Shown here piece by piece: positions 1-19,801 of a stretch of DNA of 64,000 bases. A model generated the notes under the pieces. It was given only the letters and a program-made list of their open reading frames with translations. It searched no databases and was not told the origin of the DNA. Both the position numbers and the translations under genes were made by a program. Positions within the stretch are counted from its first letter, which is position 1. Every line of letters starts with the position of its first letter. This DNA is from a virus: the IMG/VR virus record IMGVR_UViG_3300000285_000003; one strand, written 5' to 3'.

Positions 1-51
1 AGCAACAGACTCATAATCTGGAGGTCCTAGGTTCAAGCCCTAGCTGGTCCA
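1..51 (+). tRNA. tRNA, 5'-truncated by window edge, anticodon CAU (Met/fMet or Ile2 type)
   Basis: Anticodon stem CAGA(6-9)/TCTG(17-20) with loop CTCATAA. T arm is CTAGG-TTCAAGC-CCTAG (27-43). Acceptor 3' strand CTGGTCC plus discriminator A51. CCA is not encoded. Confidence 0.8.
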
Positions 52-2220: not shown

Positions 2221-2397
2221 ATTACTATATATTTTTAGCCATGTTTTAAGCGCTCTGAGGCAGAGTATGTCACCAAGTGGAGTAATTAACCACGAGTGCC
2301 GCAAAAATGTCTTAGAGCGCACCTAAAACGGCTTAAATCGAATGTTCTGACTGATCATCGGAACATTTACAAGAAATGTACAGTGTGTATGAAATAA

Positions 2398-2433
2398 TCT
2401 GTTTGGACAGGGGTTCGACTCCCCTCACGTCCA
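2398..2433 (+). ncRNA. tmRNA-like acceptor piece (P2 3' strand, GGAC, T arm, acceptor 3' strand) of a candidate permuted tmRNA
   Basis: The order is TCTGTTT(2398-2404), GGAC(2405-2408), AGGGG-TTCGACT-CCCCT(2409-2425), CACGTCC(2426-2432) and A2433. GGAC directly before a GGGGUUCGAcUCCCC T arm is the usual tmRNA 3'-end layout. The 5' extent of this piece is unknown. Confidence 0.5.
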
Positions 2434-2503
2434 CGGGGCATCCTCTACGCTATTGTGTAGATTCCATTTGGACAACCTAGACATGTTGTAAAACTGTCTA
2501 CAC

Positions 2504-2609
2504 GGGCGTGTTTGGTTTTGACAGACAGAGGAGATAAATACATTAAGCACTATACTATAAATTAAACGACAATGTAAATAACATTGTAGACTATACTAAC
2601 GTAGCGTAA
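2504..2609 (+). ncRNA. tmRNA-like coding piece (acceptor 5' strand, D-loop analogue, P2 5' strand, candidate tag ORF)
   Basis: GGGCGTG(2504-2510) pairs with CACGTCC(2426-2432) and gives G1-C72, G2-C71 and G3:U70. TTTGGTTTTGAC(2511-2522) resembles tmRNA UGGAUUCGAC. AGACAGA(2523-2529) pairs with TCTGTTT(2398-2404). A candidate tag frame runs from GCA 2547 to TAA 2607-2609 (ALYYKLNDNVNNIVDYTNVA). The 3' extent is uncertain. Confidence 0.45.
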
Positions 2610-2646
2610 GTTTAGTCTAGGTGTTTCCTACCAAAGTGGAGAGAAG

Positions 2647-2706
2647 AAGAAGTTGGTTCTTTGGGCTACACACCCGAGGATTAGGGTTCGACTCCCTAGC
2701 TTCTTC
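2647..2706 (+). ncRNA. 60-nt D-armless tRNA-like element immediately upstream of a CDS
   Basis: Acceptor AAGAAGT(2647-2653)/GCTTCTT(2699-2705) with one U:G pair. Only 7 nt (TGGTTCT) stand in place of a D arm. Hairpin TTGGG-CTACACA-CCCGA. T arm TAGGG-TTCGACT-CCCTA(2682-2698). Discriminator C2706. Confidence 0.45.
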
Positions 2707-3695: not shown

Positions 3696-4253
3696 ATGGA
3701 GTATCAGCGTATCACTCAATCTGAGATTGAGACCATAAAAGAAGCTCAAAAGGGAAATGAGCTAGCGTTTAATAAATTGTTTAACCGTTACAAAGAGTTC
3801 GTTGACAACGTGCTCTTTTGTTACGTGAATGACATGGATGAAGCTAAAGATCTTACAAATGTTGTATTTCTTAAGGTTCACCAAAAACTCTCGACATTCA
3901 CAGATTATTCGTCTTTTGGCGGATGGCTGAGAATTATAGCTAATCGAACAGCTATAGATTATCTACGAAAAGTAAAGGAGAAATCCATGGAGTTAGGAGA
4001 AGACTCAGGCCGACTACCTGTCGAATTAACTAATTCTTCAGAAGAAGAAGATCTTGTCAATCTTCTTGAGTATGAATCTCTTCTAAAGGAGTTTGAAAAG
4101 CTCCCAAAGAAGACACAGAAGATTTTTAATCTATTTTACGTAGAAGATCTTACCGTTGATGAAATTAGCAAAGTGCTGAAAATTCCTACAGGCACTATAA
4201 AAGCTGCACTAAGCCGCACTCGTAGGAAAATTAAAAATAACTTAAAAGTTTAA
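3696..4253 (+). CDS. ECF-type sigma-70 family RNA polymerase sigma factor
   Basis: Region 2 (DEAKDLTNVVFLKV...GWLRIIANRTAIDYLRK) and the region 4 HTH (LPKKTQKIFNLFYVEDLTVDEISKVLKIPTGTIKAALSRTRRKI) can be read directly in the 185-aa ORF. Confidence 0.9.
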   Translation: MEYQRITQSEIETIKEAQKGNELAFNKLFNRYKEFVDNVLFCYVNDMDEAKDLTNVVFLKVHQKLSTFTDYSSFGGWLRIIANRTAIDYLRKVKEKSMELGEDSGRLPVELTNSSEEEDLVNLLEYESLLKEFEKLPKKTQKIFNLFYVEDLTVDEISKVLKIPTGTIKAALSRTRRKIKNNLKV

Positions 4254-4720: not shown

Positions 4721-6232
4721 ATGGCAAAAAAGAATGGAAAGGGCAATGTAAAAGTTGCTCAGAATAACAACAATGGTGGTAACAATGCAGATGCAGCTGT
4801 TGAGGCTGCAGCTATGCTCACAACAACAGGTGGGTCAAGCATGGATCGTAATCACCAGGTAGATTTGTTGAAGATGGCTCACGATCGTTTCTTCTTGGAT
4901 GAGAAAGCTGCTGAGCACACTGGCTTCCCGCAGGGAACTATCGACAAACTCAACCATATTAATGCCCTCGGCATCGCAGTGTGTGTATGTAATGAGGTCA
5001 AGTATGGCACCAGCGATTTCGCTGTTGTAATCCGTAAGTCTGCGCTCCCAGAGCTTACTGAAGCTTTGAAGGAGATTGGTGTAAGCTTTGATGACACAAA
5101 GCTCTTGCCTTCAAAAGACGATGCTGAAGCAATTGAAGTTACAGCTTCAGCTGTAACAGTATCAGAAGAGACAGCAAAGAGTCTTGACAAGGATGCTAAG
5201 GCTCGTGCTGCAACAGCAGGTAAGGTTTTTGATCCTACAAAGATCAAGGACGAAGAAGAGCTCAAGGAAGCTTTGTCTGGATTCTTAGCTATGAACCGTG
5301 ATTCTAAGCTGATGGATAGCATCATGCAGTGTGTGAACTTCTATAAGTCATATCGCTCTATTGAAGCTAAGCATGCTATCGATTCTGCTGAGAAGACGCT
5401 CAAGAACACAAAGGACAAGAAGTACAAGGAGAACGCTGAAAAGGCTCTTGCTTCTGCAAAGAATGACCTTGAGCGCCTCAAGAACATGAACTTCCATGAT
5501 ACGTTTCGCAAGATTGTTGAGCTTACGGGTCGTGTCGGAACGCTTACTTATGGAATTGGTGCTCACTTCTTCAATGTTACCGCTACGTCAGGATCTCCTG
5601 TATCTGCGTTCTGTGAGCTTCGCGACCATTCTACTGACAAGAACACCGGCGTATGCAAGTATACCGATGATCAGATTGCAGACGCTGTAAAGTGCCTCGT
5701 AATCATTGGTGCAGACGATGTTCGCTCAAAGGGTAAGACCTTTCTCGAAGCAGAGAACAAGCTGCCAGAAAAGGATCGTGTCAAGGAGCACATTGATGCC
5801 GCTAACAAGAACATCGCATTCGCCGATAAGGCTACTGCAGCGGTTCTTGCGGCTCCAGGCGAGTTCGTTGAGAACTTGAAGAAGAACTTCTTGGAGGGTA
5901 ACAACTTTGCAAAGAAGACTGTTATCGCCATTAAGCGTGCATATTATCGAGACGTTACTCCAGAGATGATGGCTAAGGTTAAGTCTGACTCAATGCTTGA
6001 TAACGCTACGCAGCATGCTGGTATCATCTCTAACCTGTTCCGTAATCCTTCTGATCCGCTCGTAGGTTATGCCAAGGAGAATATCATCGACTTGGAGTTC
6101 AAAACCGATGAGGAGATCAAGGCTGAGGAAGAGGCTGTTGCCAAGGCTGCTAAGGAAGCAGCTGATAAGAAGGCAACTGAGAATAAGAAAAAGGAAGCCA
6201 AAGGTAAGGCCAAGGCTCAAGTAAAAAAATAA
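4721..6232 (+). CDS. hypothetical protein with Lys-rich C-terminal tail
   Basis: 503-aa ORF starting MAKKNGKG. The C-terminus is KEAADKKATENKKKEAKGKAKAQVKK. Function not recognised. Confidence 0.7.
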   Translation: MAKKNGKGNVKVAQNNNNGGNNADAAVEAAAMLTTTGGSSMDRNHQVDLLKMAHDRFFLDEKAAEHTGFPQGTIDKLNHINALGIAVCVCNEVKYGTSDFAVVIRKSALPELTEALKEIGVSFDDTKLLPSKDDAEAIEVTASAVTVSEETAKSLDKDAKARAATAGKVFDPTKIKDEEELKEALSGFLAMNRDSKLMDSIMQCVNFYKSYRSIEAKHAIDSAEKTLKNTKDKKYKENAEKALASAKNDLERLKNMNFHDTFRKIVELTGRVGTLTYGIGAHFFNVTATSGSPVSAFCELRDHSTDKNTGVCKYTDDQIADAVKCLVIIGADDVRSKGKTFLEAENKLPEKDRVKEHIDAANKNIAFADKATAAVLAAPGEFVENLKKNFLEGNNFAKKTVIAIKRAYYRDVTPEMMAKVKSDSMLDNATQHAGIISNLFRNPSDPLVGYAKENIIDLEFKTDEEIKAEEEAVAKAAKEAADKKATENKKKEAKGKAKAQVKK

Positions 6233-6735: not shown

Positions 6736-8899
6736 ACATAAGAACCCTATGCACTATAATTGGGTAAGTACATATAGTAGATCCCATTAGTCTACGTACT
6801 ATTCTGGAACATCCCTCGCGAAGGAGCTAGAAGAAAAACTCAATAAATTAAACTTGATCCGAGAATATGTTAACTCTGTCTTGCAGGGCGAGATCACTCA
6901 AAAGGTAGGATGAAATGTATCAAACATTGAAACAGTTTGATATAGGTAGGAGAAGCGTTGTATCAGCTCCTATAGATTATACAGCTGGACTTGTGAGAAC
7001 CGTCTGGAGACAAGCTGGATGAGGCTGTATAATCTAAAAACGCATAAGTCCCAAGAAGGGCATAATGAACCGTATCGTAATTATATGTGATAATACTAAG
7101 CATATACAAACGTTACACGAGATGAACTATATTGGTCCCCAGTAGGTGAACAGAATTGCATACATGGTATGGTGCATGGTGCTGGAAGAACCGAGGATAT
7201 CCCAAACAATATAGAAGTATTATTAAGCCGTAGGTAGTGTTTCTAGTGTCCAAAGCTAGTATAAAGGCCGAAAAAATTATCTAAGACGCAATATCGTGAG
7301 GATAATACTCACGGGACGTATGGTGAATACGTTGGCATATAGTCCTTGACGTTCGATTCGTCACAACTCCGTTGAAGGGGTGCCGGGGATGAGGTGTAAG
7401 ACGTCTGAGCTCATGGTAGACCGCCAGGCTTTTCTTGTTTATGCGGTATATAAAAGTAAAACAAGCGCAAGGGTTGGGCAGCCCCTTAATCGAAGCTCTA
7501 CGGGAGTATCGTACGCGGGTGAAGATCGCGGTGAAAATCTATTCCAGTTGTATTATTAGGATGTTAGGCAATCCAAACTTACAGCCAATTTCCATGAAAA
7601 TTAAATCGTTCATGAGACTATGATCGATGACTCCGTTACAGTCAAAGAAAATTGATGGAGAGCTATCCTAGAATAAGAAATAGCAAAGCAGGTAGAAAGT
7701 TGATTCGAGATATGTCCATCCAGGACCATTTGACCTCCACTTTCATCCAAAACGATCTAGACTAATAGTTTATTTGCACCATGATATACAATATTATATA
7801 GTCTCTACAGAGTAGTAAGCTGGTATATTATGTATGCGTATGTTGTATGCAAAAGATATAAATTATGAAAACCTAGAAAGTTTAAAAGATAACATGTTTA
7901 ACAAAAATTGATGTCCCTTCATAGAGTTAATCTTACGTTGTAAGTAAGGGCTTGAGGTGAAGAAATCGAGTGCCAACCGATATGCCAACCATGCTAAAGT
8001 ATACTGCGCAACAGTATATGTAAACATAAAGGTTCGAAGCAATACAGGAAATTGATGGGCAGCTTATATCTATGTTGTAAAACGACTGTGTATATTATAT
8101 GTGTATACTGTCTCTATACATGTATATTACGTTATAAGTGGGTGACAAGATGAAATGTATGGGTTGAATTCCCAATATTCGTGCACTATAAATAGGAGGT
8201 AGTAATACCGGTACAGAAAAATTGCAAACATCAGCAAAGATGTAAAAAGCCGTAAAGTCTGTGATGGGTTTGATCCTAAGACATTCCGATAACCAACCGC
8301 TGGGTACATGCCATAAGCCGAGTACCGCAGTAAGGAGCCATTTCGATAAGTTAGGCGCTTTTAAAACTTATTAGCCGAGGAAATCTGCGTTTAATCGACA
8401 ACCTGTAGGAAAATCTTGTAAGTATAGTAAGGGAAATACGACCGAGATTCTACATATTTTCGTGGGTTATAGAAAATTCTAAGATTCTATGAGTGTTAGT
8501 TGCTATGCAAAATTTCACCAACGAAAATTAGAATAGTTAAGTTAGAAAAAACGTGAACAAAATAGCAGAAAACAGTTCAGCATTTGATTATGCAAAGGAA
8601 GCATTCAAAGCTTTAGACGATGGGCCTGGATAAACCAGTAAATGCTAATTGCATCATACGTATGTAATTCCTGCTGCAAGCCTATTATCCTATTGTCGTA
8701 ATAGAGAAAGTGCAGCTAAGTCTAGATAAAGCGTCTACAATAGTAGAACTTCCTTTAGAAAACTAAGTACGCAAAGTAGTAACCGAGTATCTTCGTATCA
8801 GCGTTGCTTTATTCAATAAACAACGGCAAAGGTGTAGCCAAAATACACCATATTTTTCAATCATATCGTTAGTTAATCAATAACGATATCAAAAAGGAT
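6736..8899. other. 2.16-kb non-coding island with RNA-like structure and internal repeats
   Basis: No ORF over 62 aa in any frame. I saw no long TAG-only open frame in the stretches I checked. Contains T-arm-like hairpin TGACG-TTCGATT-CGTCA (7347-7363), hairpins CGTGAG-GATAATA-CTCACG and ACGTA-TGGTGAA-TACGT (about 7296-7335), and the motif AAATTGATG three times (7649, 7905, 8049). ATATTATAT...GTCTCTAyA occurs twice (7791-7809, 8092-8120). Confidence 0.7.
8786..8800 (+). repeat. conserved 15-mer AGTATCTTCGTATCA, copy 4 (weak flanking stem)
   Basis: Exact 15-mer 100 nt upstream of the ATG at 8900. The flanks CCG/CGT give only marginal pairing. Confidence 0.5.
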
Positions 8900-9493
8900 A
8901 TGATTATGTCAGAAATTAATGTAAACATCGTGGAAACAACTATTAAGTCAAATCGTACCCCACTGAGCATGCTCGGTGCAAAAATGTTTGGTCAGGACGT
9001 ATTTACTCCTCAGACCCGTTTATTCAACCCAGACCATGACAAGGTTTTGGAGCAGGCTAAGCAGAGCTCCAATGTAAACCTTGTACTCAATCGTTCACCT
9101 CGCCGTTTTGTGATCGGTTATATTACGATTGAGTCTATGGCAACCAAGCAGAATGCAATCGGTGATGTCGTTTGCCGTCTCAATGAGGGCACCGAGCACC
9201 AGATTGATATCCCTCTCGGTGAGAACAGCACCAAGTTTGGTGAGACCACAGAGGAGGCAGTTCAGAACGCTCTTAAGGACAAGAACTCTAAGGCTGTGTT
9301 CTCAGATCCTAAGGATTTGGGTGGCATTCTTAACGATCTTAACCGTGGTGAGATCGCTCGCCTTGATGCAATTATTGAGCAGGCTAATAAGGCTAAGGCT
9401 CAGTGTTTGTCTGCCATTGCAGCAAACGAGAAGATCATTGCAGACTACGAGCGTCAAAAGGCAGATTCTAAACCAGCTGATAAGATAGCATAA
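8900..9493 (+). CDS. hypothetical protein
   Basis: 197-aa ORF. The overlapping 9129-9488 ORF in another frame is judged spurious. Confidence 0.65.
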   Translation: MIMSEINVNIVETTIKSNRTPLSMLGAKMFGQDVFTPQTRLFNPDHDKVLEQAKQSSNVNLVLNRSPRRFVIGYITIESMATKQNAIGDVVCRLNEGTEHQIDIPLGENSTKFGETTEEAVQNALKDKNSKAVFSDPKDLGGILNDLNRGEIARLDAIIEQANKAKAQCLSAIAANEKIIADYERQKADSKPADKIA

Positions 9494-9497
9494 GTTC

Positions 9498-10082
9498 ATG
9501 GAGGCTGTTTTAACAGAAAAGAGCGTTAAGCTTATAGCAGTAATGCTCTCAGAACCGAAAATTAAGGCAGCCGTTTATGAAAAGTTGGACCATACAGAGA
9601 AGTACAAGATCTATACCATTAACGATGATGGTAGTATTACTCTGGGTTCAACTAGATTCCATTTTTGGAACAAGATAATCGGCTGTGAGCAAACCTTACC
9701 ATTTGAGAGTTTCGCTCTCAAGGTATGGGATGCACTAGTGAGTCTTTCCACAGGTCTTAACCAAAAAGCCATTATGGAAGGACTATCACAAGAAATTGTG
9801 ATGAAAGGAGTTAAAGACAAAAACTTTAACTGGGTCGTAGAACGACTGTATGATGTTGCGACAAAAGTATGTCAGAATTCTAGCATTGCTGATGGCGTAG
9901 GAGCGGACCCTGCGGGGTCCCGGGTGTCAGGGCCAAGGCTTAACGCTCAGCAAGAGTTTCCTGAGAAAATTGTTATCAATATCAACGGACGTAAAGAAGT
10001 TTTGCAGGTTAAAGACTGCATCGGTAAACCAATGATTGAGTTGGAGTACGGAATTGTAAACGCTAAACGAGTAATGCCATAA
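9498..10082 (+). CDS. hypothetical protein
   Basis: 194-aa ORF 4 nt after the upstream stop. It contains the GGACCC-TGCG-GGGTCC hairpin at 9905-9920. Confidence 0.65.
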   Translation: MEAVLTEKSVKLIAVMLSEPKIKAAVYEKLDHTEKYKIYTINDDGSITLGSTRFHFWNKIIGCEQTLPFESFALKVWDALVSLSTGLNQKAIMEGLSQEIVMKGVKDKNFNWVVERLYDVATKVCQNSSIADGVGADPAGSRVSGPRLNAQQEFPEKIVININGRKEVLQVKDCIGKPMIELEYGIVNAKRVMP

Positions 10083-14693: not shown

Positions 14694-15260
14694 ATGATTA
14701 TTGAACTAAACACAAAACTCCTGGACATTCCAGGACTAAATTCAAATCAATTAATATTCCTAAGTTTGGTATTGGATAAGAATCAAAAAACTTATAATCA
14801 AGACGTCCGCAAAATTGTCAGCCTAGTTAGCGACGAAGAAATATCAAACTTAATTTCTCAGGGACTTATTACCTCGATCGAGAGAGGTAAGTCAATTACA
14901 TATCATGCAACAGATACGCTTAAAGATATAGTTCGACCTAAACAGGACTATTTCGATCTGTTCTATGAAATGTACCCAATATACGTTCTACGACCAGATG
15001 GTACAAAAAACTATCTGAGAGCCAACGTTAACAAGTGTAGACATTTATTTAATGTTTATGTAGGTCAAAGCGAAGCTATGGCTCAACATCTTATTCAGTG
15101 TCTCGACTTCGAAATGAAGAAAAAGACTAACGAGGGTAAACTAAGTTATATGAAGACGATGTGGAGATGGCTCGTAGACCATCAATGGGAAGAATCTGAG
15201 GAAGAAATGCAAGACAACTCTAAAATTGAGGAATCGACTTATGGAACAGAACTTATCTAA
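14694..15260 (+). CDS. hypothetical protein (positional candidate helicase loader/replication organiser)
   Basis: 188-aa ORF between the polymerase and helicase genes. No motif recognised, so the function is positional inference only. Confidence 0.55.
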   Translation: MIIELNTKLLDIPGLNSNQLIFLSLVLDKNQKTYNQDVRKIVSLVSDEEISNLISQGLITSIERGKSITYHATDTLKDIVRPKQDYFDLFYEMYPIYVLRPDGTKNYLRANVNKCRHLFNVYVGQSEAMAQHLIQCLDFEMKKKTNEGKLSYMKTMWRWLVDHQWEESEEEMQDNSKIEESTYGTELI

Positions 15261-17502: not shown

Positions 17503-18108
17503 ATGTTTAGTACAAAGACAGCCGCAATTAGCAACGAAGAATTTAGTAATAGTAGTTATATGCCAGTAGGCATCAACCAGGATGTCACTCTTAAAGAGGT
17601 AAACTGTAACAAGTCTCCTCAGGGTCTCGATTTCCTCGAGATCGTATTTGAGAACGAGGATGGTCAAACAGCTACTCTGACAGAGTGGAAGAATACAAAG
17701 GGAATGTATATTAAGACAGACGAAGACTTGCAGAAGCGTGATAACGCTCAGTTTGGACGAGTTTGTCAGATTCTTGATTGTTTCTACCCACAGAGACCAG
17801 ATGCAGAGCTTTCTACATTCAAGGAGATGATTGACTGGACAAAGAAGATGCTTGACCCTATGGTTGCTACCAAGAAAAAGCTCCGTTTGAAGGTTATCTA
17901 TGACAAGAAGGGCTATACTCAAGTAAGTAAGCTCGGAATCTTCGTTGAAGACATGTCTAATACAGATTCGCAGATTAAGCTCTTTAAGAACGATCTTATG
18001 GAGCGACCAATTGTTGCCGATAAGGAGAACAACGATCCGCTTAACGTGCCACCAACCGTTACTCCGGAAACTGCGGATGCAGCAGGCGCATCAGATCTTC
18101 CCTTTTAA
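17503..18108 (+). CDS. putative single-stranded DNA-binding protein
   Basis: 201-aa ORF directly after the Sak4-like ATPase. The C-terminus ends in DLPF, reminiscent of the SSB C-terminal tip motif (D-I-P-F). The OB-fold cannot be verified by eye. Confidence 0.4.
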   Translation: MFSTKTAAISNEEFSNSSYMPVGINQDVTLKEVNCNKSPQGLDFLEIVFENEDGQTATLTEWKNTKGMYIKTDEDLQKRDNAQFGRVCQILDCFYPQRPDAELSTFKEMIDWTKKMLDPMVATKKKLRLKVIYDKKGYTQVSKLGIFVEDMSNTDSQIKLFKNDLMERPIVADKENNDPLNVPPTVTPETADAAGASDLPF

Positions 18109-18401
18109 GGGGTTTACGCCTGAAGAAATAGAAATACTACTTGATTGTATGAAATCCGGTAAATGGTTCTTATACTGTCTACATAGCAGGAGTGCCAAAC
18201 TATACAACAAGTGGATACACCCAAGGGAGGTAATACTGCCATGAAAGGGTGTTGGTGGAGCTAGGTAATTCAGTTACCCTTTGGAGGTGAAATGCCTCCA
18301 ATAAGGCTCGCAGGGTGTCGTGAGACACAAGCATGGACGTATGCGAAAACAGATCCAAATCGACGTTTTAATCATGTTTTGTTATATAGACAAAAGTCCA
18401 G

Positions 18402-18426
18402 TAGGGTTCGAATCCCTACAGAGCCA
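18402..18426 (+). ncRNA. orphan tRNA-like 3' half (T arm plus acceptor 3' strand) within a structured non-coding RNA region
   Basis: TAGGG-TTCGAAT-CCCTA followed by CAGAGCC and A. The best upstream partner, GGCTC at 18306-18310, gives only 5 bp over a 120-nt span. Upstream hairpins are GTGTC-GTGA-GACAC (GNRA loop) and TTTTGT-TATATAG-ACAAAA. Confidence 0.35.
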
Positions 18427-18627
18427 CAACATTTCTGATGATAAGAAGAGCTACAGCTTGTGAAAGTAATAGCTCTGTCCGCCTGTGAAGGCCGATATTA
18501 TCTATGATGCACAGTTTACCTGGCATCAGATTTCATACGCGTGTACGCTACGTAAGTGCGGGTTTGAATAACCTAAAGTCCGAGCTTAGCATCTCCGTAA
18601 ACCGCTATACGTCCGTCAACGTAGACC

Positions 18628-18655
18628 TGAGCATGTCATTAAACTGCTCATTTTT
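18628..18655 (+). terminator. Rho-independent terminator
   Basis: Stem TGAGCA(18628-18633)/TGCTCA(18645-18650) followed by TTTTT (18651-18655). Confidence 0.65.
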
Positions 18656-18656
18656 A

Positions 18657-18760
18657 GGGAAGTTAGTCTAATGGTAAAACAAGGGCATTGATAGATTGGA
18701 ATGTGTGCAAGCTTAAAAGAAACACTACCCTGCTTATCGGTTCGAATCCGATACTTTCCA
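18657..18760 (+). tRNA. non-canonical 104-nt tRNA-like gene with a ~33-nt insertion in the anticodon region; identity undetermined
   Basis: Acceptor GGGAAGT/ACTTTCC with one G:U pair. D arm TAGTCTAATGGTAAAAC. T arm ATCGG-TTCGAAT-CCGAT, discriminator A. Between AGGGC(18682-18686) and ACCCT(18727-18731) lie 40 nt instead of a 7-nt loop. No reading gives a clean CUA anticodon. Confidence 0.45.
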
Positions 18761-18766
18761 CTACAT

Positions 18767-18815
18767 GGCTAGATTGGATCCTTGCAAGGAAGCGGTTCGA
18801 ATCCGCACCTAGCCC
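18767..18815 (+). ncRNA. 49-nt mini tRNA-like element (acceptor, short hairpin, T arm) immediately upstream of a CDS
   Basis: GGCTAGA(18767-18773)/CCTAGCC(18808-18814) gives 6 bp. Then TTGGAT, hairpin TCCT-TGCA-AGGA and T arm GCGG-TTCGAAT-CCGC. Discriminator C18815. The primase ATG is at 18830. Confidence 0.4.
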
Positions 18816-18829
18816 CTAACTTATAAGTT

Positions 18830-19801
18830 ATGTATAGTACTAGAACAGCGATTACTATGTCCTTGAAAGATATCTTGGACAAAGTAAATGATTTAGACAT
18901 CTATACGTATTGTCTAGGACAGTTCAAAGTTGGAAAACTAATGAATAGTCCTTTAAGGTCTGGAGATAAGAACCCTTCATTTGGAATATTTCATTCTAAA
19001 ACAGGAGGGTTGTTATGGAAAGATCTTGGAACTGGAGAATGCGGAAACTCTCTGAAGTTCCTAAAAGAATACAAAGGTATAACGACTAGAGAAGAGCTTG
19101 AACGAGAATTATTGAGAATAGTACGCAGAATAAATCCTAATACAATCGTAAGGACAAATACGTACGATAAACCGAAAGGAGATACCGATATCGGAATAGT
19201 TCGACAGCCGTTTACCAATGTAGACAAACAGTACTGGAAACAGTTCGGAATACATATTGATACCCTAAAAAAGTTCAATGTGTTTAGCATTAAATACTTT
19301 CTTTGTAATAGTATCGTCCGAAGTATCTACAAAGAAAATAGTCCTATGTATGCATATAAAGTGTATGATAAGTTTAAGATTTATCGTCCACTTGCTTCCA
19401 AGTTTACTAAATGGCGTACCAATCTGACGAATCGGCACGTACAGGGATTATCCGAATTGCCTAAGGAAGGAGGCGAACTACTCATAATAACAAAATCACT
19501 GAAAGATGTGATGTGTTGCTACGAGATGGGTTTTAATGCAATAGCTGCTGCTAGCGAAACTGTGTTTATACCTGAAGACATACTCAGGTCTCTACGTTCC
19601 AAATGGAAACATATAGTTATACTGTATGATAGAGATCAAACCGGTATGCTTAAGGCTAGACAATATAGTAAGCAATACAAAATAGATGCTTTTTTCATTA
19701 ATAAAAAATTTAAAGCCAAAGATCTATCAGATGCTGTTCGTGACAACGGATTTAGCACCATGAAAGACTGGTTAACAAAAACGTTACAGAAATATGATTG
19801 A
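18830..19801 (+). CDS. DnaG-like DNA primase (Toprim)
   Basis: Degenerate primase finger region SPLRSGDKNPSFGIF...GTGECGNSLKFL. Toprim signature LLIITKSLKDV...ILYDRDQTG. Confidence 0.8.
   Translation: MYSTRTAITMSLKDILDKVNDLDIYTYCLGQFKVGKLMNSPLRSGDKNPSFGIFHSKTGGLLWKDLGTGECGNSLKFLKEYKGITTREELERELLRIVRRINPNTIVRTNTYDKPKGDTDIGIVRQPFTNVDKQYWKQFGIHIDTLKKFNVFSIKYFLCNSIVRSIYKENSPMYAYKVYDKFKIYRPLASKFTKWRTNLTNRHVQGLSELPKEGGELLIITKSLKDVMCCYEMGFNAIAAASETVFIPEDILRSLRSKWKHIVILYDRDQTGMLKARQYSKQYKIDAFFINKKFKAKDLSDAVRDNGFSTMKDWLTKTLQKYD

Follow-up and report, generated by a model that had tools for sequence, protein, structure and literature searches.

Transfer RNA (tRNA)-like modules that do not decode occur within longer transcripts as handles for RNase P and RNase Z and set the ends of the neighboring RNAs; mascRNA (MALAT1 and MEN-beta) and the TMER of MHV68 are of this kind, and RNase P, RNase Z, and the CCA-adding enzyme require as their substrate no more than the minihelix of acceptor and T arm. 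In plant mitochondria, the t-elements are such tRNA-like handles at messenger RNA (mRNA) boundaries, where RNase P and RNase Z use them to form the 5′ and 3′ ends of mRNAs (Forner et al. 2007, PMC1920247). We analyzed a stretch of 64,000 nucleotides (nt) of viral DNA (IMG/VR record IMGVR_UViG_3300000285_000003; the window), a Burzaovirus (Suoliviridae, crAss-like) genome ~99% identical to cr7_1, in which three tRNA-like elements, (a) to (c), precede a primase gene and a fourth, at 2646–2706, precedes the open reading frame (ORF) starting at 2716. Like t-elements and the tRNA punctuation of mitochondria, these are nondecoding acceptor/T-arm structures at mRNA boundaries and are interchangeable with canonical tRNAs. 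Unlike t-elements, they lie in a double-stranded DNA phage of Bacteroidota, are hypervariable, cassette-like, and often in tandem, several have alanine (Ala) identity, and their cleavage is what we infer; they also differ from mascRNA and TMER, which are eukaryotic or herpesviral and transcribed by RNA polymerase II or III.

Several other systems share features with the elements. Transfer-messenger RNA (tmRNA) reduced to its tRNA-like domain, without the coding sequence (CDS), occurs in mycobacteriophage DS6A and in mitochondrial and plastid forms, and the DS6A form was reported to inhibit the host tmRNA (PMC11915505). Phage tRNAs can evade or neutralize tRNA-targeting defenses, as those of T5 do with retron or PARIS (PMC11555353), and several defense effectors target the acceptor ends or tails of tRNAs (PMC10435456, PMC11245113, PMC12851939). 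The loci studied here resemble those of T5 in being early and variable, with an arms-race rationale for their turnover, whereas the T5-type tRNAs are canonical and decoding, with altered anticodon loops, and most modules here have no anticodon loop. Finally, D-armless and armless tRNAs are found in mitochondria, and "allo-tRNAs" have 8/4 or 9/3 structures (PMC5389517). Processing signals that resemble tRNAs, tmRNAs without a CDS, and tRNA islands in phages have thus all been described before; for Crassvirales, the literature gave us no account of slots that stand at a fixed position before gene starts and have a hypervariable content of tRNA mimics, anticodon-less and partly of Ala type.

Results

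tRNA-Like Elements in the Window

The T-loop motif GGTTCGANTCC occurs five times in the window, always on the plus strand (at 2412, 2685, 18405, 18739, and 18794), against an expectation of 0.02 from shuffled sequences. At the gathering threshold, Rfam recognized three features in the window (a truncated tRNA at 1–51, a permuted tmRNA at 2374–2609, and a tRNA at 18657–18760), and the calls of ARAGORN with default settings were limited to the tmRNA and "tRNA-Cys(ACA)" (2641–2707), with none of the elements (a) to (c) among them. When the Rfam search was extended to E ≤ 10, a tRNA match was obtained for (b) only, and neither tRNA nor any other known family was matched by (a), by (c), or by the conserved RNAs flanking them. 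All four elements nevertheless contain a stack of acceptor and T arm of ~12 base pairs (bp) with a GTTCRANYC T loop: 7 + 5 bp in (b), 7 + 5 positions with two mismatches at the junction in (c), 5 bp, a G·A, and 6 bp in (a), and 8 + 5 bp in 2646–2706. A D arm with G18 and G19 is present in (b) alone; (a) has a GNRA hairpin in its place, and (c) and 2646–2706 have no D arm. The canonical anticodon stem of 5 bp with a 7-nt loop (U33 and purine 37) is found in none of (a) to (c). A first-pass annotation, made from the letters of the window, had described the elements as noncanonical and tRNA-like. The excess of T-loop motifs, the predicted folds, and the covariation among relatives bear out this description, and the elements are real and under structural selection.

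Cassette Slots in Related Phages

Using the primase protein as an anchor, we identified 202 relatives in IMG/VR and fetched 80 loci with 71–99% identity; the positions of the elements were tallied over 83 loci. In 67 of the 83, an acceptor/T-arm element ends 15–29 nt 5′ of the primase ATG, whichever cassette is present. Ten of these elements are canonical tRNAs (Leu-UAA, Val-GAC, Lys, Trp, and Thr) and 57 are noncanonical, with lengths of 42–222 nt and many of them bare minihelices of 42–46 nt. Among Burzaovirus genomes, the flanks of the site are near-identical, with an invariant hairpin ending in …AAACTGCTCATTTT on the left and CTAACTTATAAGTTATG on the right, and enclose ~17 different contents of one to four modules per genome, such as (b) with (c), (b) alone, a 64-nt element, or tRNA-Val(GAC) with an odd tRNA of 86 nt; the slot is never empty. 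The 731 bases around (a) to (c) match cr7_1 (NC_055895, Burzaovirus coli) at 98.9% and cr124_1 at 97.1%, and the match to both ends exactly at 18656, where element (b) starts. With strict clustering, 59 distinct elements fell into 28 families, five of them canonical.

The same pattern was found at the second site, for which ORF 2716 served as the anchor of 40 loci. The tail of the tmRNA upstream and CTATTAGTTATG downstream are constant, and between them compensatory changes preserve acceptor and T arm, while the middle is one of at least six unrelated sequences or is deleted to leave a bare minihelix of ~35 nt. As the middle is swapped or deleted and the top kept, the top half is the selected part. 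The cassette in the window (2646–2706, plus strand; −22.8 kcal/mol, z = −2.35) has an 8-bp acceptor, GAAGAAGU/GCUUCUUC, an 8-bp arm with the loop CUACACA, and a T arm, and is followed by 9 nt and then the ATG at 2716. This agrees with its earlier description as a D-armless cloverleaf ending just before that ATG. Its best Rfam match is tRNA-Sec, with only 29.7 bits and below the gathering score of 47. The missing D arm and the 8-bp acceptor recall D-armless tRNAs and allo-tRNAs; unlike in D-armless tRNAs, the "anticodon" arm is replaced or deleted in relatives, which argues that decoding is not the selected function.

Directly upstream, and absent from the first-pass annotation, lies a permuted (two-piece) tmRNA (2374–2609, plus strand), which scores 63 bits with the Rfam model tmRNA_permuted (RF04321; gathering score 47), is reported by ARAGORN as tmRNA*, and is annotated in cr7_1. 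Its tag ORF, DNVNNIVDYTNVA*, spans 2568–2609, and its acceptor, GGGCGUG/CACGUCC, contains G3:U70. The tag ends in …NVA, which is unusual compared with …LAA, and the variants GNVNNIVDYTNVA, …TCVA, and …TNIA are seen in relatives. ORF 2716 gave no SmpB-like match among PDB sequences.

Judged by these comparisons of genomes, the pre-primase site is a hypervariable cassette slot, and the slot after the tmRNA is one of the same kind; in both, selection acts on the top half of a tRNA and on where it stands. Covariation of T stem and acceptor is visible in the slot-2 family and in a family of 42-nt elements. The modules also share their 3′ context: among 109 distinct T-arm contexts, A73–C74 is found in 85 (the background frequency of AC is 5.8%), usually continued by A or T and then A (ACAA or ACTA). 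The same trailer, without an encoded CCA, follows the canonical tRNA-Met (…GGTCC-A-CAA) and tRNA-Gln(CUA) (…GGGGTA-A-CAA) of these phages, and because the trailer is common to modules and canonical phage tRNAs, the two probably share their 3′ maturation.

Canonical tRNAs in the same slot of some relatives and the mosaic contents of the slot could also point to a recombination hot spot in which the modules are functionless remnants of tRNA genes, and by direct reading CUUGCAA in (c) looks like the anticodon loop of tRNA-Ala(UGC) without its stem. We consider this quite unlikely. In several independent families, acceptor and T stems are maintained by compensatory changes, and the T loop is near-invariant; the frequency of the module at this site, together with the Burzaovirus slot never being empty, fits poorly with decay, and 23 noncanonical families with a preserved top half are not what neutral decay would leave.

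Elements (c) and (a) and Their Flanks

Element (c) (18767–18815, plus strand; −16.8 kcal/mol) is a minihelix of 49 nt. It consists of a 6-bp acceptor, GGCUAG/CUAGCC, a hairpin UCCU-UGCA-AGGA with 4 bp and a tetraloop (18779–18790), and a T arm (18792–18806), and the fold agrees with the acceptor/T-arm minihelix near the primase ATG that had been read from the sequence; 14 nt intervene between its end and the ATG at 18830. It is present in at least nine relatives and is always the last cassette 5′ of the primase gene. The leader that follows, CTAACTTATAAGTT (18816–18829, plus strand), forms the invariant right boundary of the slot in Burzaovirus and contains the palindrome ACTTATAAGT (18819–18828), 1 nt 5′ of the ATG. 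In other genera among the 80 loci, the palindrome has changed symmetrically to GCTTATAAGC, GCTTAAGC, and GTTTTAAAC; a role as an operator or in the control of translation is conceivable.

The fixed distance of 15–29 nt to the ATG and the conservation of leader and palindrome, with symmetric changes of the palindrome across genera, are what one would expect if the elements were cis-acting structures in the 5′ untranslated region (UTR) that stay on the mRNA and block 5′-end–dependent decay or control the translation of primase and ORF 2716, possibly with the palindrome. For such a role, however, any stem-loop would do, and the T loop, the 12-bp stack, R73–C74, and the interchange of tRNAs and minihelices would be left unexplained; the upstream cassettes of tandem arrays are also too distant from the ATG. 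We therefore regard a purely cis-acting function as improbable. Of the roles suggested in the first-pass annotation (tRNA-like punctuation, processing signals, or 5′-UTR function), the general idea is best backed by the relatives, through the pre-ATG elements of the 67 loci and their likeness in slot 2.

Element (a) had been described as an orphan 3′ half. Its 5′ acceptor strand was now found, and (a) is a complete tRNA-shaped RNA of 122 nt (18305–18426, plus strand), for which the fold of 18300–18432 has a minimum free energy (MFE) of −38.7 kcal/mol and z = −4.55. GGCUC at 18305–18309 pairs with GAGCC at 18421–18425 and is followed by A18426; the D position is taken by a hairpin GUGUC-GUGA-GACAC (18315–18328), the anticodon position by an AU-rich arm of ~60 nt that varies in length and is closed by GGAC/GUCC (18335–18338/18396–18399), and the T arm (18401–18419) has a 6-bp stem and the loop UUCGAAU. 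For the covariation test, we considered the acceptor, the D-position hairpin, and the 6-bp T stem over 12 distinct variants from 24 sequence variants. In total, 99.5% of the cells were paired and 7 of the 16 pairs had compensatory changes, compared with 29–51% pairing in slid controls. At locus L066, from a different genus, a homolog of (a) lies 20 nt 5′ of the primase ATG.

The RNA 3′ of (a) (18427–18655, plus strand) is conserved and structured, with matches in 31 relatives by nhmmer and 23 pairs by RNAalifold, five of them compensatory; it gave no match in Rfam. Compensatory pairs include CGC/GCG, CCA/UGG, and CCC/GGG, and the segments CCGTAAAC and GACCTGAGCATGTCATTAAACTGCTC are invariant. 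It ends with an invariant hairpin at 18628–18650 (8 bp, interrupted, −8.5 kcal/mol) and five U residues at 18651–18655. The terminator proposed for 18628–18655 was not flagged by a simple terminator scan; with its hairpin and U tract, we refer to it as terminator-like. On the 5′ side of (a), at 18245–18304 (plus strand), lies a two-hairpin motif (z = −2.22) with AAGGGU…ACCCUU around UGGUGGAG, followed by GGAGGUGAAAUGCCUCC. It is nearly invariant in the alignment of relatives, has a compensatory change from GGAGG/CCUCC to GGGGG/CCCCC at locus L029, and found no match in Rfam. Related motifs, GGUCAGUGGUGGAG, occur in other genera, and motifs of this type precede the primase gene also at L035, L038, L046, L048, L054, L060, L066, L069, and L078. 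Forms with GGUCAGUGGUGGAGG, a hairpin, and CCCC stand 3′ of the stop codon of the upstream gene in several genera.

Element (b) and Its Insertion

Element (b) (18657–18760, plus strand) scores 40.9 bits with the Rfam tRNA model, above the gathering score of 29. The acceptor is formed by 18657–18663 and 18753–18759, with G3 (18659) opposite U70 (18757) and 18760 as A73, the T arm spans 18736–18752, and the D arm, GUCU-AAUGGUA-AAAC, contains one C·A mismatch. Between them, 42 nt (18686–18727) take the place of nine positions of the Rfam model, one stem pair and the 7-nt loop. T arm, acceptor, D arm, and the oversized anticodon loop had all been recognized in the first reading of the window, and software, too, folds the element only with an insertion: when introns were allowed, ARAGORN reported a tRNA-Ile(GAU) with a 31-nt "intron" at 36/37, whose anticodon stem contains a C·A mismatch. 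At least 10 relatives have the element, without exception in this slot before the primase gene, and outside the same phage group the 17-mer TTGGAATGTGTGCAAGC from the insertion found only two chance matches in coding sequences.

The position of the insertion, in the anticodon loop near 37/38, resembles that in intron-containing tRNA genes, and (b) could be a tRNA gene with an intron of ~31 nt whose spliced form decodes Ile (GAU) or Val (GAC or AAC). Besides the ARAGORN and Rfam results and the intact D arm, T arm, and acceptor, substitutions among the relatives keep or improve the pairing (C12 to U restores U12–A23, and C25 to U gives G·U), and sister genomes have tRNA-Val(GAC) in the same slot. 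We enumerated all single excisions that restore a 5-bp stem and a 7-nt loop with U33 and R37, and they gave the anticodons GAU, GAC, or AAC only. Unlike known tRNA introns of the group I or bulge-helix-bulge type, however, the insertion of 31–42 nt is far too short for group I, whose introns have roughly 200 nt or more and a P1–P9 catalytic core, and shows no such core (no Intron_gpI match in 17900–19000 at E ≤ 10), and no bulge-helix-bulge, with two 3-nt bulges flanking a 4-bp helix at the junctions of exon and intron, is evident in the MFE or centroid fold, although no dedicated scan for it was made. To our knowledge, group I introns are the only type of tRNA intron in bacteria and phages, and we know of no bulge-helix-bulge splicing endonuclease in bacteria. 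The insertion is no more stable than shuffled sequences (z = −0.43), the spliced stem would retain the C·A mismatch, and a search with the exon pattern and a gap of 5–35 nt found no intron-less allele in IMG/VR (0 matches). Furthermore, the unrelated insertions of sister cassettes cannot be excised to leave a canonical loop, and the pair G3:U70 with A73 predicts alanine and not Ile or Val. Splicing of (b) into a decoding tRNA is thus very improbable.

Two other readings of (b) were considered and set aside. The frame IDRLECVQA* of the insertion ends with Ala-UAA and would allow a mini-tmRNA; this is likely a coincidence, since a GCN codon before one of three stops is unremarkable and a closed loop of 42 nt is too constrained. 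A host origin or a phage attachment site (attP) was not supported, as no host tRNA in GTDB matched the 3′ half of (b), the matches being two ~101-kb phage contigs labeled Segatella copri; moreover, all elements possess both acceptor strands, which weighs against the attachment-site idea. The two contigs (L143 and L144; JAJWOH010000001.1 and JAJXAL010000002.1), deposited as Segatella copri metagenome-assembled genomes, are complete Burzaovirus genomes with a (b) or (b) + (c) slot. Their binning is an artifact that hints at the host.

Ala-Type Elements

The bases G1–C72, G2–C71, G3·U70, and A73 are the determinants used by alanyl-tRNA synthetase (AlaRS). Element (b) has all of them (GGGAAGU/ACUUUCC-A), and the tmRNA of the phage has the same identity pair. 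Over 79 strictly defined elements, G·U is found 17 times at 3:70 and one to five times at positions 2, 4, 5, and 6. The elements with G3:U70 always have A73 as well as G1–C72 and G2–C71, make up seven families wholly and two more mostly, and covary at positions 4–7 (GGGAAGU, GGGGAGU, GGGGUAU, GGGCACA, GGGUGUA, and others). The pair is missing in (a), (c), and 2646–2706, and in the variant at L007 it is G3–C70, so the rule is not absolute. Cassettes with the GGGGUAU acceptor gave sub-threshold matches to tmRNA in Rfam (18–19 bits against a gathering score of 47; E = 0.002–0.003), and one class of cassettes has a D region, AAUAUUCUAGAUAG, that by eye resembles the tmRNA motif AUUCUGGAUUCGAC. In the cassettes with GGGUUGU/GGGGUUAU, a 21-nt loop is nearly invariant on a diverging tRNA body. 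Sub-threshold Rfam matches on sister cassettes comprise YrlA (Y RNA-like; 30.4 bits) and tmRNA (18–19 bits), at L026 2794–2921, L024 2907–2989, and L031 2821–2903. Such resemblances hint that some cassettes mimic the tRNA-like domains of other RNAs.

Given these patterns, the hypervariable, horizontally exchanged, anticodon-less RNAs might act in trans as mimics of tRNA or tmRNA that titrate factors binding the top half or the elbow. The G3:U70/A73 class, including (b), would then be charged by AlaRS, behave like a CDS-less tmRNA domain, and compete for SmpB, EF-Tu, or AlaRS; alternatively, the RNAs would be decoys for tRNA-targeting defense nucleases or transferases. The strict association of G3:U70 with A73 in the modules and the phage tmRNA, the weak tmRNA and YrlA (~30 bits) matches, the tmRNA-like D region, and the nearly invariant 21-nt loop are in line with this, as is the turnover of the slots, which is like that of counter-defense islands; the CDS-less tmRNA of DS6A (PMC11915505) and the phage tRNAs that act against tRNA-cleaving defenses (PMC11555353) are precedents. 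In its G3:U70, A73, and T arm and in having neither anticodon nor tag, (b) is like a CDS-less tmRNA, and the phage also has a full two-piece tmRNA. On the other hand, tRNA-like domains of tmRNA lack the true D stem that (b) has, and (b) scores as tRNA and not as tmRNA, with no match to a tmRNA covariance model at E ≤ 10, and has the 42-nt insertion; the weak tmRNA matches are to sister cassettes only. G3:U70 is absent from the other three elements of the window and from the commonest minihelices, and in L007 the pair is G3–C70. Searches of 28 early ORFs with Pfam and PHROGs for RNA-processing, SmpB, and aminoacyl-tRNA synthetase genes found only an ECF-type sigma factor and weak Toprim matches, with no SmpB-like or RNA-handling protein among them, and a purely trans-acting role leaves the strict adjacency to start codons unexplained. 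We consider mimicry as the principal function possible, if doubtful; it is compatible with processing of the modules and could form a second layer on top of it. When the variable parts of (a), (b), (c), and 2646–2706 were searched against the window for antisense targets (blastn-short), only chance-level matches of 10–12 nt were found.

The Suppressor tRNA(CUA)

The first-pass annotation had found no recognizable suppressor tRNA for a phage that reads TAG as Gln and had suggested that one might lie upstream of position 1 or arise by processing of (b). Neither ARAGORN, in default and intron modes, nor Rfam found a tRNA with a CUA anticodon in the window, with or without the postulated excision. 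For the window, the observation thus holds; for the phage it does not, as a canonical tRNA(CUA) lies outside the window start. In cr7_1, it is encoded at 9123–9194 on the minus strand, scores 55.6 bits with Rfam, is called "Pyl (cta)" by ARAGORN and tRNA-Gln in GenBank, and ends 23 nt 5′ of the ATG of the dUTPase gene. Since the first tRNA of the window corresponds to cr7_1 18263–18337, the gene lies ~9 kb before window position 1, which agrees with the proposed upstream location. Also the IMG/VR contig 3300045988_066466 has a canonical tRNA(CUA), together with the same (b) + (c) slot before the primase gene as the window. The tRNA(CUA) aligns with the tRNA-Gln(UUG) of related phages, with U1–A72, the D arm, and the variable region in common, and this likeness supports the reading of TAG as Gln. 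The missing suppressor is a window-edge effect, and the suppressor is an ordinary Gln-type tRNA(CUA).

The absence of a tRNA(CUA) from the window and a CUA triplet at 18725–18727, the 3′ end of the insertion, had been compatible with a suppressor among the elements, above all (b) if processed in some unusual way. Among the enumerated excisions, none places CUA in a 7-nt loop with U33, and a canonical Gln-type gene exists both in cr7_1 and in a contig that has (b) and (c). The upstream gene and the enumeration effectively refute (b) as the suppressor, and we see next to no chance for any of the elements in that role.

Just upstream of the tRNA(CUA) gene, at ~9460–9540 on the minus strand of cr7_1 (L083), we observed a further tRNA-like element with an acceptor GAGUCUA…UAGACUC, a D arm, and a T arm, in which the anticodon position holds only a 3-bp stem and an 8-nt loop. 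Another T arm, upstream of cr7_1 gp12, has no matching 5′ acceptor strand and was not counted.

Genomic Context

The premise of TAG recoding was itself sound. The summed length of ORFs of at least 100 aa roughly doubles when TAG is read as sense, and readthrough gives minus-strand ORFs of 6001, 1830, 1804, and 1570 aa. The early plus-strand genes (about 1–25000) use the standard code, and the recoding is found in late genes. The window opens with the 3′ two-thirds of a tRNA-Met(CAU) (1–51, plus strand; Rfam tRNA 34.6 bits, 5′-truncated), which is cut by the window edge, has the full gene at cr7_1 18263–18337, and is followed by the trailer A-CAA.

The primase gene used as the comparative anchor (18830–19801, plus strand) has weak Toprim matches in Pfam, is annotated as DNA primase in cr7_1 and cr124_1, and is the gene shared with the 202 IMG/VR relatives. 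The noncoding gap before it, previously given as 720 nt, is shorter, since 18109–18244 (plus strand) is conserved with synonymous substitutions and stays open in the +1 frame in every relative; this stretch encodes protein (…KGFTPEEIEILLDCMKSGKWFLYCLHSRSAKLYNKWIHPREVILP*) in the +1 frame relative to the gene at 17503–18108. That gene ends with CCC_TTT_TAA, from whose stop the +1 frame is open for 45 codons, and TTT_TAA followed by an open +1 frame was found in 14 of 14 variants. The +1-frame peptide is conserved as protein (…[FY]TPEE.EILLDCMKSGKWF…) in all Burzaovirus relatives. UUU_UAA may be a site of programmed +1 frameshifting at a stop, like that of prfB, or the stretch may be a small separate or overlapping gene.

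Other features were observed in the early region. The ORF 3696–4253 encodes an ECF-type protein of the sigma-70 family (Sigma70_r2 and r4_2, E about 1e-12), which suggests phage-directed promoter switching. A region of ~2.2 kb (6736–8899) contains no ORF of at least 90 aa on either strand with the standard code and could harbor noncoding RNA or recoded or short genes. In cr7_1 (L083), 14726–14807 is a hammerhead ribozyme of the RAGATH-1 type (68.6 bits; gathering score 56.3), located in a part of the early region that lies shortly before the window, and a gene annotated as reverse transcriptase, likely of a diversity-generating retroelement, is at 4850–5809.

Discussion

The genome organization described here forms a clear and testable pattern, while the mechanism is a proposal made from comparisons of sequences. 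We propose, with a confidence a little short of even, that (a), (b), (c), and 2646–2706 are nondecoding tRNA-like handles with which the host RNase P and RNase Z punctuate the early transcripts of the phage. The modules keep what the maturation machinery would need, that is, the ~12-bp stack of acceptor and T arm, the canonical T loop, and the R73–C74 trailer, and have the anticodon arm lost or replaced. They occupy two fixed slots on the early plus strand, each between a structured noncoding RNA (the two-piece tmRNA or 18245–18655) and the A-rich short leader of the next ORF. An early transcript would read through the slot, and every module would be cut twice, by host RNase P where it begins and by RNase Z or a comparable enzyme after position 73. 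The products would be the upstream noncoding RNA with a defined 3′ end, small tRNA-like RNAs, and an mRNA for primase or ORF 2716 with a leader of ~10–25 nt. At least one module per slot would be required, and the extra, rapidly exchanged modules would be accessory. The proposal accounts for nondecoding tRNA-like structures at the boundaries of transcript units, in 57 of the 67 pre-primase elements and, in slot 2, between the tmRNA and the ATG at 2716 (40 loci). Some of the released RNAs may, in addition, be Ala-type mimics of tRNA or tmRNA, or decoys.

Several points weigh against the punctuation proposal. Cleavage by RNase P and RNase Z is purely inferred. Punctuation needs one module per slot, whereas tandem arrays of up to four modules and an extreme turnover among near-identical genomes are seen, which suggests that the released RNAs are themselves of importance. 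Element (b) retains G3:U70/A73 and a complete D arm, neither of which processing alone would demand, and punctuation alone does not explain the near-invariant 21-nt loop that another cassette family carries on a tRNA body that diverges. In some relatives, the 40 nt adjoining the ATG contain no module: only a GGUGGAG motif is present there at L048 and L078, and L007, L021, and L068 carry an unrelated insert of ~300 nt there. The terminator-like hairpin at 18628–18655 stands immediately 5′ of (b). No consistent promoter emerged from a sigma-70 scan, which is uninformative for Bacteroidota, or from direct reading for Bacteroidota −7 motifs, which placed TAnnTTTG 5′ of only some cassettes.

A stronger version of the trans-acting explanation would take the two slots as an arsenal of tRNA mimics, many of them Ala-accepting mimics of the tmRNA domain, which are released by RNase P and RNase Z and act in trans on SmpB, AlaRS, EF-Tu, or defense enzymes. 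We consider this version unlikely; if true, the mimics together with the two-piece tmRNA would mean that ribosome rescue and defense are reprogrammed during the switch to TAG as Gln.

For reports of missing suppressors (e.g., 10.64898/2026.08.21.746148), our results suggest a comparison with complete genomes before unusual suppressors are proposed, as the Suoliviridae phage studied here has a canonical one. The crAss-like phages rank with the most abundant viruses in the human gut, yet little is known of their early-gene regulation and counter-defense. Should the punctuation proposal hold, the tRNA processing of the host would cut the early transcripts of these phages, an organelle-type organization not described for phages of Bacteroidota, and it would explain the odd tRNAs reported by annotation pipelines, such as "tRNA-Cys(ACA)", an 86-nt "tRNA-Val", or a tRNA with an "intron". 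If some of the modules are indeed Ala-type mimics or decoys, the slot would be the noncoding counterpart of protein anti-defense islands and a natural library of tRNA scaffolds with variable loops.

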